Part shown: positions 2,046-5,442 of the stretch, piece after piece
How positions within the stretch are numbered: the first letter of the stretch is position 1
How the letters are laid out: every line of letters starts with the position of its first letter
From: an uncultured Methanosarcinaceae archaeon
GTDB lineage: Archaea; Halobacteriota; Methanosarcinia; Methanosarcinales; Methanosarcinaceae
NCBI GenBank assembly: GCA_963847185.1
Contig: CAWJYV010000010.1
Location: 672,001 to 736,000 of the forward strand
DNA: 64,000 bases
Direction: 5' to 3'
Notes under the pieces: model-generated
What the model saw: only the letters and a program-made list of their open reading frames with translations
What the model was told of the DNA's origin: nothing
The model's database searches: none
Program-made: the position numbers and the translations under genes

Positions 2046-2717
2046 ATGTCAGTAATATATTGGAAGAATATTTCCGGAAAGAATATACCTTCAAGCCTGG
2101 ATTTATACCCTGTAATTTATCAGTATTTACAGGATGGATACAAAATTCTCGACATTGGATGCGGTTTTGGCAAGATTAGCCTGAAACTCGCTTCCCTCGG
2201 ATATTCTGTGACAGGGATAGACATTAATCATGAGGCAATAAGGCTTTCAAAAGTAGTTGCAGAGGAGGGAAGTACTTCAGGAAAGGCTGAATTTGCAGTC
2301 GGAAATGCTTCGGTACTTCCTTTTTCTGGAAAAAGTTTTGATCTTGCAGTCATGCAGGCTTTTCTGACCTCTGTACCTGACGCGCAGGAAAGAATAAAAA
2401 TCATAAAGGAAACCTTCAGGGTACTGAAACCCGGAGGCTGTCTCTATCTTGTAGAATTTGGACAGAACTGGCACCTTAAACTTTATAGGAACCGTTATCT
2501 CAGGGATTTCCCAGTTACAAAAGAAGAAGGATCTTTCCTTGCCCATAACCCTGAGACCGGAAAAGTAGAGTATATAGCACATCATTTCTCCGAAAAAGAA
2601 CTTGTACTTCTGATGGTAAATTGCGGGTTTGACATCGACTATTTCAGGATTGAAGAACTCAAAACCAGAACCGGAAATAAAATTAATGGTTTTGTTATCA
2701 TTGCTAAAAGACTTTGA
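2046..2717 (+). CDS. Class I SAM-dependent methyltransferase
   Basis: ILDIGCGFG motif I, GIDI, FDL, LKPGG. Confidence 0.9.
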   Translation: MSVIYWKNISGKNIPSSLDLYPVIYQYLQDGYKILDIGCGFGKISLKLASLGYSVTGIDINHEAIRLSKVVAEEGSTSGKAEFAVGNASVLPFSGKSFDLAVMQAFLTSVPDAQERIKIIKETFRVLKPGGCLYLVEFGQNWHLKLYRNRYLRDFPVTKEEGSFLAHNPETGKVEYIAHHFSEKELVLLMVNCGFDIDYFRIEELKTRTGNKINGFVIIAKRL

Positions 2718-3404: not shown

Positions 3405-3564
3405 TTTATATAGTATGAGAGCTTGGGTCATATTAGCAGTAAAAATAAAGAGCCATATAATCTGTTATTAAAAACCTCATTTTTGTTTTTAATAAAAGAG
3501 CGTATAGATCTTATTTTTATAGCAGCCTAAATGTATATCCGCTATAAGCGGAGGTGAAACAAAA
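3405..3564 (+). promoter_or_regulatory. TATA box plus conserved structured leader, copy 1
   Basis: TTTATATA at 3405; stem TTATTAAAAAC/GTTTTTAATAA; hairpin TCCGCT-ATA-AGCGGA overlapping SD GGAGGTGA. Confidence 0.7.
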
Positions 3565-3789
3565 GTGAGTTTTAGTGACAGAGGAGGGCATTCCTTCAGA
3601 GGAAGAGATAGCAATCGGGGAAGTAGAGACAACAACCGTGGTGGTTTCAGAGGCGGCAGCAGCGGACCCAAAGAAATGTACCCAGCGGTTTGTTCTGACT
3701 GTGGCGTTGAGACCCAGGTTCCATTCAAGCCAGCTGAAGGAAGACCTGTTTACTGCAGAGACTGTCTCCCAAAACACAGAAAATTCTAA
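3565..3789 (+). CDS. CxxC-x17-CxxC domain protein with RGG-rich N-terminus, copy 1
   Basis: CSDC...VPFKP..GRPVYCRDC; SD GGAGGTGA; GTG start. Confidence 0.92.
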   Translation: MSFSDRGGHSFRGRDSNRGSRDNNRGGFRGGSSGPKEMYPAVCSDCGVETQVPFKPAEGRPVYCRDCLPKHRKF

Positions 3790-3989
3790 TTCCATAAATT
3801 CTGCATCTTCTAAGTTTTAGTGTTATAAATGGAAATCTCTGGAAACAGAATTTCCAAATCCACTTTATTCTAATGCTTATTTAACTCAAACTCTACAATT
3901 GATTTCACCTATGCTCTAGAAGCTGATTTATTACAACAATCTCCCGATTTTGAGGAAGACGCTTTTATCCTTTTGGTTCTCTGGATTAG

Positions 3990-4139
3990 TTATATATAAC
4001 ATAAACAGATTTTTACAATTAGTAAAAATAATAAGACATAATCTGTTATTGAAAACTTCATTTTCGTTTTAAATAATAAATTATCTCTTATCATATTTTT
4101 ATAAATTATTTTATCCGCTATAAGCGGAGGTGAAACAAA
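3990..4139 (+). promoter_or_regulatory. TATA box plus conserved structured leader, copy 2
   Basis: TTATATAT at 3990; same ATAATCTGTTATT..AAAAC and ATCCGCTATAAGCGGAGGTGAAACAAA blocks. Confidence 0.7.
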
Positions 4140-4364
4140 ATGGGTTTTAATGACAGAGGAAACTCCTTCAGGGGAAGAGACAGCAGCCGGGGTGGCAGAG
4201 ACAGCGGCCGTAGTGGTGGTTTCAGAGGCGGTAACAGTGGCCCCAGAGAAATGCACAAGGTTACCTGTTCTGACTGCGGGGTTGAGACTGAAGTTCCGTT
4301 CAAACCAACCGAGGGACGGCCAGTGTACTGCAGAGAATGCCTTCCTAACCACAGAAAATTCTGA
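4140..4364 (+). CDS. CxxC-x17-CxxC domain protein, copy 2
   Basis: CSDC...EVPFKPTEGRPVYCREC; RG-rich N-terminus. Confidence 0.92.
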   Translation: MGFNDRGNSFRGRDSSRGGRDSGRSGGFRGGNSGPREMHKVTCSDCGVETEVPFKPTEGRPVYCRECLPNHRKF

Positions 4365-4568
4365 AATTTAATATCTCACTCGTAAGTGTTGATCTATAAA
4401 TTAATATATCAACACTTGTCCACTTTTATTCATGCTTTTTGTTAAACTTTTTTTCCCCTTCTTTCTACATCGGGCTTTAACCTCGTTTGCAAGAGTGGCA
4501 GCTTCATAACGAAGGTTACAGTAACTCAAGGTAAAAACATTTTTCACGGTATACTGATATGATAAAAC

Positions 4569-4720
4569 TTATATAATGTGATTGTATATGTAGCTCCAGT
4601 AAAATTAAGAGTCATATAATCTGTTATTAAAAACCTCATTTTTGGTTTTAATAAAAGAGCATATAGATCTTATTTTTATAGCGTATTAGGAAATCCGCTA
4701 TAAGCGGAGGTGAAACAAAA
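4569..4720 (+). promoter_or_regulatory. TATA box plus conserved structured leader, copy 3
   Basis: TTATATAA at 4569; 12-bp stem TTATTAAAAACC/GGTTTTTAATAA; SD hairpin. Confidence 0.7.
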
Positions 4721-4924
4721 ATGGGTTTTAATGACAGAGGAAATTCCTTCAGGGGAAGAGACAACAACCGCGGAGGTTTCGGAGGTCCTAAGGAAATGCA
4801 CACTGCAGTCTGCTCTGACTGCGGTGAAGAGACACAGGTACCTTTCAGGCCAGACCCTGACAGACCAGTCTATTGCAGAGAATGCCTTCCTAACCACAGG
4901 AAGCCTAGAGAGAACCGCTATTAA
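4721..4924 (+). CDS. CxxC-x17-CxxC domain protein, copy 3
   Basis: CSDC...QVPFRPDPDRPVYCREC. Confidence 0.92.
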   Translation: MGFNDRGNSFRGRDNNRGGFGGPKEMHTAVCSDCGEETQVPFRPDPDRPVYCRECLPNHRKPRENRY

Positions 4925-5064
4925 CTCTCCTAATTCATTCATAATTTTGCTTGACATATTATGTCCGTTTTGCTGCTTGGGCAGGTCAAACGGACCACTT
5001 CTTTTTATACACTTAATTAAATGCCTATCTCTATTCTATGTTGCTCTGTTTTTTCATGGTAATA

Positions 5065-5217
5065 TTTATATAATCAAACTACTATGTAGGTATAGCTAAA
5101 AATAAAGAGACGTATAATCTGTTATTAAAAACCAGTTTTTGTTTTTAATCAATAAATTATATACAATCTTGTTTTTACCTTTTATCTCTTATCCGCTATA
5201 AGCGGAGGTGAAACAAA
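5065..5217 (+). promoter_or_regulatory. TATA box plus conserved structured leader, copy 4
   Basis: TTTATATA at 5065; same conserved blocks. Confidence 0.7.
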
Positions 5218-5442
5218 ATGGGTTTTAATGACAGAGGAAATTCCTTTAGAGGAAGAGACAGCAGCAGGGGCGGCAGAGACAGCGGCCGTAGTGGCGGTTT
5301 CAGAGGTGGCAACAGTGGCCCCAGAGAAATGCACAAGGTTACCTGTTCTGACTGTGGGGTTGAGACTGAAGTTCCGTTCAAACCAACCGAAGGACGGCCA
5401 GTGTACTGCAGAGAATGCCTTCCTAACCACAGAAGCTTTTAA
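5218..5442 (+). CDS. CxxC-x17-CxxC domain protein, copy 4
   Basis: Identical to copy 2 protein except the penultimate residue (K/S). Confidence 0.92.
   Translation: MGFNDRGNSFRGRDSSRGGRDSGRSGGFRGGNSGPREMHKVTCSDCGVETEVPFKPTEGRPVYCRECLPNHRSF

Follow-up and report, generated by a model that had tools for sequence, protein, structure and literature searches.

The window analysed here, a stretch of 64,000 nucleotides (nt) from an uncultured member of the Methanosarcinaceae (assembly GCA_963847185.1, contig CAWJYV010000010.1, positions 672,001 to 736,000), comes from a Methanosarcina genome and carries an array of four tandem plus-strand genes at 3565-5442, each preceded by a conserved 5' leader that forms the subject of this study. 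The encoded proteins are 67 to 74 amino acids (aa) long and consist of an RGG-rich N-terminus followed by a CxxC-x17-CxxC zinc ribbon; in profile searches they matched PF23477 (zf_Tbcl_2) at 68-70 bits against a cut-off of 27 and TIGR04272 (CxxC-x17-CxxC) at 72-74 bits against a cut-off of 36. Copy 1 spans 3565..3789 (74 aa; PF23477 E-value 3.2e-19) and opens with a GTG start codon at 3565-3567, copy 2 spans 4140..4364 (74 aa; PF23477 E-value 1e-19, TIGR04272 E-value 5.1e-21), copy 3 spans 4721..4924 (67 aa; PF23477 E-value 5e-19), and copy 4 spans 5218..5442 (74 aa; PF23477 E-value 1.1e-19).

The leader family and its distribution

A TATA box (TTTATATA), read from the sequence, lies at 3405-3412 (+) upstream of copy 1, and its equivalents precede copies 2, 3, and 4 at 3990-3998, 4568-4575, and 5065-5072 (+). 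Nearly all homologous leaders have a (T/C)TTATATA box at a fixed spacing of about 23 nt upstream of (G/A)AAAATAAAGAG, which would place the transcription start of copy 1 at 3438-3441; primary transcripts would then be expected to begin at (G/A)AAAAUAAAGAG, some 24 nt past the TATA box. Given this fixed distance, conservation begins at the predicted transcription start, and each gene would have a separate TATA-box promoter and a 5' untranslated region (UTR) of about 120-125 nt. The predicted UTRs, all on the plus strand, occupy 3441..3564 in copy 1 (about 124 nt, its start set by the TATA spacing), 4024..4139 in copy 2, 4601..4720 in copy 3, and 5098..5217 in copy 4.

A motif scan of the window found four perfect plus-strand copies of ATAATCTGTTATTRAAAAC, at 3457, 4038, 4616, and 5114 (4038-4056, 4616-4634, and 5114-5132 in copies 2-4; chance expectation 0.09), together with a fifth match on the minus strand carrying three mismatches (4066-4084). 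The 28-mer ATCCGCTATAAGCGGAGGTGAAACAAAA is exact at 3537, 4113, 4693, and 5191 (4113-4140, 4693-4720, and 5191-5218 in copies 2-4; chance expectation 0.00), in copies 2 and 4 its final A doubles as the first base of the ATG, and its 20-mer core, with up to three mismatches allowed, occurs only at these four sites in the 4.04-Mb genome. The first-pass annotation of this DNA had proposed that all four leaders share ATAATCTGTTATT(A/G)AAAAC, the exact 28-mer, and a long AU stem amid diverging flanks, and each of these points is borne out: both motifs are present in every copy, the AU stem (TTATTAAAAAC/GTTTTTAATAA) is perfect only in copy 1, the other three copies having imperfect versions, and the linker and the TATA-to-start spacer are only 15-58% and 21-42% identical among the four copies. 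The Shine-Dalgarno (SD) sequence of copy 1, GGAGGTGA, lies at 3550-3557 (+), followed by the start region at 3557..3582 (+), made up of the spacer AAACAAAA, the GTG, and codons 2-6 (AGT TTT AGT GAC AGA).

To place these four leaders among their relatives, 79 related loci and the window were aligned into a set of 80 distinct Methanosarcina-type leaders, on which the counts below are based. Non-Methanosarcina homologs, a few motif-less rows (e.g., L039), one row with an alternative start (L024), and one with an insertion (L079:1873) were dropped before counting. The GGTGA of the SD is retained in almost all of the 80. Mean pairwise identity reaches 86% in the 5' domain of the leader and 94% in codons 1-6, compared with 89% at positions 1+2 and 55% at third positions of the zinc-ribbon codons, 61% in the linker, and 44% in the 24 nt between TATA box and predicted start.

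Of 151 genomes of the family, 42 contain matches to a covariance model built from the homologous leaders; three genera account for them, with 33/34, 2/2, and 6/6 genomes, and the 13 other genera gave 0/109, the surveyed genomes being samples of their groups, so that "not found" is not equivalent to "absent." The number of matches ranges from 1 to 12 per genome, with 10 in the source genome, and adds up to some 270 or more leaders. A linked pattern consisting of the motif, a gap of 70-100 nt, and TTTAAYGAYAGA gave a similar picture (41/151 genomes; 33/34 in the genus of the source genome, 6/6 and 1/2 in two further genera, 0/109 in the 13 remaining ones), and reversed-pattern controls yielded 0 matches. 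In the source genome, tblastn identified 11 members of the zinc-ribbon family, of which 10 carry the leader; no other gene does. Six leader-bearing paralogs lie outside the window, on contigs C4 (188083-204680) and C10 (657984); five of the six are scattered across 16 kb of C4, and four of these five lack the hairpin over the SD described below and carry AACCAAGGTGAAAC instead. The 11th, divergent member (MERKGFQSKDQGFSRGRDS...; contig C8, 1077991-1078197, minus strand) is without the leader and has an unrelated upstream region.

Comparison with Rfam 15 returned no family; the six matches obtained had E-values of 3.8-9.8, all lay on the minus strand, and scored 15-21 bits against thresholds of 38-100. 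A full-text literature search, supplements aside, found the leader undescribed in the accessible portions of the sources, among them PMC12704099, PMC11456600, and the preprint 10.1101/2025.10.28.685009; the word "UTR" does not occur in the accessible part of PMC12704099.

That the leader exists as RNA is suggested by contigs from four RNA libraries, metatranscriptomes holding close relatives. For copy 1, contigs cover 3455-3773, 3470-3620, and 3472-3741 and continue into the coding sequence, and for copies 3 and 4 contigs at 4622-4746, 4631-4743, and 5113-5243 run from the motif through into the coding sequence, which argues against a transcription start downstream of the stems. The first ~14 nt of the predicted UTR are reached only by a single low-depth contig (4401-4660), which extends over a whole intergenic region. 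In run X4, contigs end beside sequencing-adapter letters at 5113, ~5117, and 4640; they may reflect frequent RNA fragment ends, processing within the leader, or artefacts of the library.

Competing pairings at the translation start

The most conserved motif of the leader, ATAATCTGTTATTAAAAAC, had been given no role in the first-pass annotation; we found that it pairs with the start codon region. The motif CUGUUAUUAAAAAC and the loop that follows it are the complement of a stretch that runs from the spacer through the start codon and codons 2-6, giving a helix of 24 pairs, and the minimum-energy folds of copies 1 and 3 pair the conserved motif with the start of the coding sequence. In copy 1, this anti-start strand (3461..3489, plus strand; UCUGUUAUUAAAAACC plus UCAUUUUUGUUUU) comprises the 5' arm of a local helix, P3, its loop, and the start of its 3' arm, and it pairs with 3555-3582; folding, pair counts, and codon bias all identify the start region (3557..3582) as the 3' strand of this long-range helix.

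The pairing is kept throughout the 80 leaders. RNAalifold predicted zero pairs from the alignment, so the helices were named and counted by hand. The core helix of 13 pairs, CUGUUAUUAAAA.C with G.UUUUAAUGACAG (codons 2-6), is 98.7% paired, compared with 31-56% when the partners are slid by one to three columns, and the extended helix of 24 pairs, which adds the pairing of the P3 loop and 3' arm with the spacer and start codon, is 95.9% paired, compared with 41-60% in the slid controls. Substitutions tend to retain pairing: pair 32-150 is AU in 60 leaders, GU in 14, GC in 5, and other in 1, the five GC cases combining a motif A>G change with a synonymous AAT>AAC change, and the same five leaders also place C opposite G32 in the local helix. 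Pair 50-135 occurs as UA (30), UG (24), and CG (7), and GAC>GAT, seen three times, retains a G-U pair. The loop changes in step with codon 2: CCAAT-type loops are found alongside ATGGCT, and loops of the CUC/UUC type alongside ATGGGT or AGT. In addition, the spacer GAAAAGAAA is accompanied by the loop TTTCTG in 7/7 cases.

This observation is further strengthened by duplex energies. The anti-start strand and its own start region form a duplex with a mean energy of -22.7 kcal/mol, against -6.9 kcal/mol with shuffled start regions, and the own duplex was stronger than all 50 shuffles in 80/80 leaders; for window copies 1-4 the values are -28.7, -20.8, -25.0, and -24.1 kcal/mol. Own partners also pair better than those of other paralogs (-22.7 versus -21.3 kcal/mol), none of 10000 permutations being as low. 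A common complementarity test, comparing 126 nt upstream with 32 nt around the start and expressed as z against shuffles, gave z < -3 in 73/80 leaders (median -5.3).

Codon usage points in the same direction, the baseline being the rest of these 80 genes rather than other genes of the genome. Phe3 is encoded by TTT in 80/80 leaders, compared with 32/266 (12%) elsewhere in these genes, and at codons 2-6 the use of AAT for Asn (73/80 versus 128/336), GAC for Asp (75/78 versus 153/221), and AGA for Arg (80/80 versus 326/644) is similarly biased, every favoured codon being the helix-keeping one. The leader thus provides a clean case of RNA structure constraining synonymous codons, with Phe3 TTT as the clearest example.

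The same anti-start strand has a second, local partner. In copy 1, the 5' domain (3441..3519, plus strand) folds into a long irregular hairpin of three helices with -16.0 kcal/mol when folded alone (-14.6 to -17.5 kcal/mol across the four window copies), in which P1 is AAAAUAAAGA/UCUUAUUUU, P2 lies around UAUA/UAUA, and P3 is UUAUUAAAAAC/GUUUUUAAUAA. The minimum-energy fold of copies 2 and 4 is this open form, a hairpin domain of about 78 nt plus the SD hairpin, with P1 AAAAUAAAGA/UCUUAUUUU, P2 GUAUA/UAUAC, and P3 UUAUUAAAAAC/GUUUUUAAU. Across the 80 leaders, 96.5% of the cells are paired in P1, 95.7% in P2, and 94.4% in P3, and local covariation is visible at P3 pair 32-61 (AU 51, GC 6, GU 4, other 18). 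The P3 3' arm, GUUUUUAAUCAAAGAG, a proposed decoy of the start region, matches the first codons, GGUUUUAAUGACAGAG, at 13/16 positions. Relative to shuffles, the four window leaders scored z = -3.0 to -4.3 when folded together with 16 nt of coding sequence.

Because P1 and P2 cross the long-range helix, the 5' hairpin domain and the closed fold are mutually exclusive. When each fold was forced at 37 C, the closed form was more stable than the open form in 72/80 leaders, by a median of 6.4 kcal/mol, and this computed advantage shrinks on cooling to 5.7 kcal/mol at 25 C and 5.25 kcal/mol at 15 C.

Two further observations concern the leader sequence. A direct repeat, AAAGAG-NN-GTATAATCTGTTATTAAAAAC (3447-3476) and AAAGAG-NNN-TATACAATCTTATTTTTAAAC (3495-3524) in copy 1, is likewise found in copies 2-4 and, considered with the likeness of the P3 3' arm to the first codons, points to a possible origin of the leader from a partial copy of the start region of the gene itself. 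An upstream open reading frame starting from a TTG in the P3 loop was considered and rejected: the TTG is present in 64/80 leaders, often opening 12-16 codons, but it is missing from the other 16, lacks an SD, and the conserved nucleotides are read in differing frames between copies (LFLIKERIDLIF versus LFLIKELYTILFL).

A proposed translational switch and its alternatives

Taken together, these results favour a reading, to which we assign a probability of roughly 55%, in which the leader is a cis-acting translational switch of three parts: the anti-start strand, i.e., the invariant UCUGUUAUUAAAAAC(C) and the U-rich loop after it; the local decoy formed by the P3 3' arm, which resembles the first codons; and the true start region of spacer, start codon, and codons 2-6. 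In the open state, the anti-start strand would be bound by the decoy within the 5' hairpin domain (P1-P3), leaving the start codon free, and the SD hairpin, where present, would cover only the GGA of the SD. In the closed state, the anti-start strand would pair over about 24 bp with the start region, which should block initiation, and the first ~20 nt of the mRNA would also be freed. Since the 5' hairpin is transcribed about 100 nt before the start region and the closed fold is the more stable one, control would probably be kinetic. Fresh or ribosome-occupied mRNA would thus be open, and idle mRNA would close, with its start codon hidden and its 5' end freed. Any factor that alters the speed of refolding could then tune output, candidates being cold, an RNA chaperone or helicase, or the RGG/zinc-ribbon protein itself.

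This last point leads to a more tentative and, on balance, doubtful extension, in which the leader is an autoregulatory or chaperone-sensing switch and the RGG/zinc-ribbon proteins do in Methanosarcina what cold-shock proteins do in bacteria. As abundant RNA-binding proteins, they would be encoded by mRNAs that share a cold-box-like leader, and the protein or cold would set the speed at which the open fold collapses into the start-masking duplex. The literature searched does not report cold induction for this zinc-ribbon family; if true, such a circuit would be the first described in archaea.

The proposed design has recognizable relatives. In the leader of the phage MS2 maturation (A-protein) gene, an upstream complement binds the start region, and folding is subject to a kinetic delay; both systems combine long-distance pairing of an upstream strand with the start, a closed equilibrium fold, and a local early fold giving a ribosome entry window, the kinetics being our inference in the archaeal case. 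MS2, however, is a phage RNA genome of bacteria in which the SD region is paired, without sequence relation to the archaeal leader, whereas the latter belongs to a family of cellular mRNAs and pairs the spacer, start codon, and codons 2-6, with the SD outside. The cold-shock mRNAs of the Escherichia coli cspA family use a long conserved 5' UTR as a thermosensor, and the likeness lies in paralogs for small, abundant, likely nucleic-acid-binding proteins, in the long conserved 5' UTR, and in alternative folds that expose or hide the start; the domain of life, protein fold, and RNA sequence differ, and the closed form of the archaeal leader is computed to be favoured alike at 15-37 C. In the E. 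coli rpoS leader, an upstream inhibitory strand is opened by small RNAs, and in both cases an upstream antisense strand blocks the start and an anti-antisense sequence relieves the block; the opener of rpoS is a trans-acting small RNA with Hfq, whereas the archaeal opener would be the P3 3' arm of the same leader. ROSE and fourU RNA thermometers share a hairpin overlapping the SD, but the archaeal leader has no Rfam match, and its hairpin hides three SD bases, with a third of the leaders doing without it. Compared with riboswitches, the leader has an expression platform of competing helices, and its 5' domain amounts to one irregular hairpin whose internal loops are conserved; neither a ligand nor a junction is evident in the inspected fold.

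Several observations weigh against the translational switch. Both-sided changes occur in only 2/24 pairs of the long-range helix, no more than in a shuffle control; most helix positions are invariant and the 80 leaders are related paralogs and orthologs, so the counts overstate the number of independent events, the AAC/G32 covariation amounting to about two events with one counter-example (L048). Leader L015:1360 lacks loop complementarity, the open fold is favoured in 8/80 leaders, and the energy models are approximate for long AU-rich helices closing loops of about 70-100 nt. The codon bias could also owe something to a general leaning towards A/T-rich codons at gene starts. The RNA-library contigs cannot show RNA ends, may include DNA carry-over, and represent RNA of relatives; the transcription start is placed by TATA spacing alone, and we infer the effect on translation. 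Moreover, the confident detection of M. mazei homologs in the accessible part of PMC12704099 indicates that the closed fold is not silencing in standard growth.

Among the alternatives, the one proposed by the first-pass annotation places a hairpin, TCCGCT/AGCGGA, at the core of a thermosensor or protein-controlled clamp on the SD that an upstream TTATAGC would open. The pairings themselves are real: in copy 1, the 6-bp hairpin UCCGCU-AUA-AGCGGA (3538..3552, plus strand; -8.0 kcal/mol at 37 C and -11.4 kcal/mol at 15 C) covers G3550, G3551, and A3552, the same hairpin recurs in copies 2, 3, and 4 (4114-4128, 4694-4708, and 5192-5206, plus strand), and TTATAGC at 3517-3523 is complementary to GCTATAA at 3541-3547, as it also is in copy 3, whose minimum-energy fold contains this helix. 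The loop varies among leaders (TATAA, TGGAA, TGAAA, TAAA, TAGA, AAA, and others) with the stem kept, and 3/5 counted pairs show both-sided changes (e.g., CCGT/ACGG and CCTT/GAGG). As the core mechanism, however, this is quite unlikely: 68% of the cells are paired and the hairpin forms in only ~51-54 of the 80 leaders, the ~26-29 without it (about one third) retaining the rest of the leader with GGTGA as their entire SD (AAGGTGAAAC). Where it does form, it covers 3/8 SD bases and leaves GGTGA free, which differs from an RNA thermometer with an SD or start hairpin in all members, and the TTATAGC helix is exact in only 7/51 hairpin-bearing leaders, namely one orthologous group and window copy 3. 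The invariant 5' motif and the constraint on codons 2-6 are left unexplained, and the computed energies, in which the start-masking fold remains favoured at 15, 25, and 37 C, do not point to a plain heat-melting thermometer. The SD hairpin is an accessory of part of the leader family and the TTATAGC helix an accessory of one orthologous group plus copy 3. The earlier proposal does hold in that the paralogs share a long 5' UTR containing a cis element that is both conserved and structured, and in that mutually exclusive pairings exist at the translation start. A role in mRNA life span, with the P1-paired 5' end or the helix between UTR and coding sequence guarding against 5'-end-dependent decay, is unlikely in its own right. 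P1 pairs the first ~10 nt of the predicted transcript, and this end is paired in one state and not in the other. A stabilising effect of long 5' UTRs on other mRNAs has been reported from cold-adapted methanogens. Long 5' UTRs have also been tied to post-transcriptional cold adaptation in a related methanogen (PMC5378194, in its accessible part), and a stabilising leader would fit the high protein abundance indicated in the accessible part of PMC12704099. A stabiliser, however, needs neither 24 bp over the start codon nor a decoy arm mimicking codons, and such a role is compatible with, rather than exclusive of, a translational switch.

The conserved block could instead act as DNA, with the palindrome TTATTAAAAAC-N9-GTTTTTAATAA and a direct repeat (AAAGAG..TATA..AATCT), both a short way past the promoter, serving as operators for a transcription factor that co-regulates the paralogs. 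The block does start right at the predicted start site, is common to all paralogs in a genome, and contains both repeats, but changes keep pairing rather than half-sites (P3 A-T to G-C), the motif A>G change accompanies a synonymous T>C change 115 nt away in the coding sequence, and G-U-type changes occur on one strand only (TA>TG in 15 leaders at pair 7-83; GC>GU at pair 29-153). With the constraint extending to synonymous sites of codons 2-6 and the region found in RNA-library contigs, we regard this explanation as very unlikely. Much the same applies to attenuation, or a 5' UTR-derived small RNA, in which the oligo-T tracts TTTTTGTTTTT and TTATTTTTA would stop some transcripts early and the short product holding the anti-start strand could act in trans on paralog mRNAs. 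Oligo-T tracts are the archaeal intrinsic terminator signal, the T5-G-T5 and the second T5 are nearly invariant in the 80 leaders, and the anti-start strand fits other paralogs nearly as well as its own gene by the duplex energies given above; the tracts are, however, already accounted for, since they complement the A-rich spacer and belong to the P3 and P1 arms, and the RNA-library contigs pass both of them into coding sequence, making this reading very improbable. Finally, the leaders could lack function, with recent duplication in tandem and gene conversion as the source of their likeness. Copies 2 and 4 are indeed recent duplicates, 94% identical at zinc-ribbon third positions, and the 28-mer, identical in the four window copies despite only 36-55% third-position identity for most copy pairs and differing between species, points to local homogenisation by gene conversion within the array. 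Those other copy pairs nevertheless retain 77-95% identity in the 5' domain, and the leader persists in three genera, with as many as 12 copies in a genome, so that absence of function is scarcely credible. The identity contrast (86% in the 5' domain against 55% at third positions) and the spread across genera contradict conservation purely by recent duplication; the leader is not a duplication relic.

With the translational switch thus preferred, the element looks like an archaeal leader RNA family with an anti-start/decoy design, new to Rfam and to the literature found. It is long, highly conserved, and multiple within genomes, and it could be entered as a new RNA family. To our knowledge, very few archaeal cis-regulatory leader RNAs have a worked-out logic. 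The three-part design gives clear and cheap tests in a genetically tractable methanogen, and a regulatory signal would hint at the role of the small zinc-binding proteins encoded behind the leader.

Proteins, neighbours, and homologs of the array

In M. mazei, eight proteins of this type are among the very confidently detected small proteins, their function is unknown, and zinc binding has been shown for two of the eight (PMC12704099, in its accessible part). A sequence search of the Protein Data Bank with the zinc-ribbon protein gave no relative (best E-value 0.16), and a protein atlas search found nothing beyond the family itself.

The aIF-1A gene (PF01176; 5709-6059, plus strand) lies directly downstream of the four-gene array and is also the downstream neighbour of the homologous zinc-ribbon gene in a related locus (L011), which suggests a conserved linkage between zinc-ribbon genes and this translation factor. 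The upstream flank is ordinary-looking, with a small multidrug resistance family gene (PF00893; 2856-3182, minus strand) and a class I SAM methyltransferase gene (2046-2717, plus strand).

Outside Methanosarcina, 18 homologs (Bathyarchaeia, Thermoplasmatales, Methanolobus, Methanomassiliicoccales, and others) were subjected to the same upstream/start complementarity test, and their z-scores ranged from -0.9 to +1.3, none falling below -3. The Bathyarchaeia homologs carry a conserved leader of their own about 60 nt upstream of their start codons, GTATATTGGRARCCT..GGTxxCCGTxTAC..AAGGAGTGAAT (L050, L051, L054, L056, L062-L064, L073, and L074), which is unrelated to the Methanosarcina one and showed no start-region complementarity in this test. 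One related locus (L032), a 2.6-kb contig binned as "Candidatus Cloacimonadota bacterium," bears a typical Methanosarcina leader and gene and is probably mis-binned.

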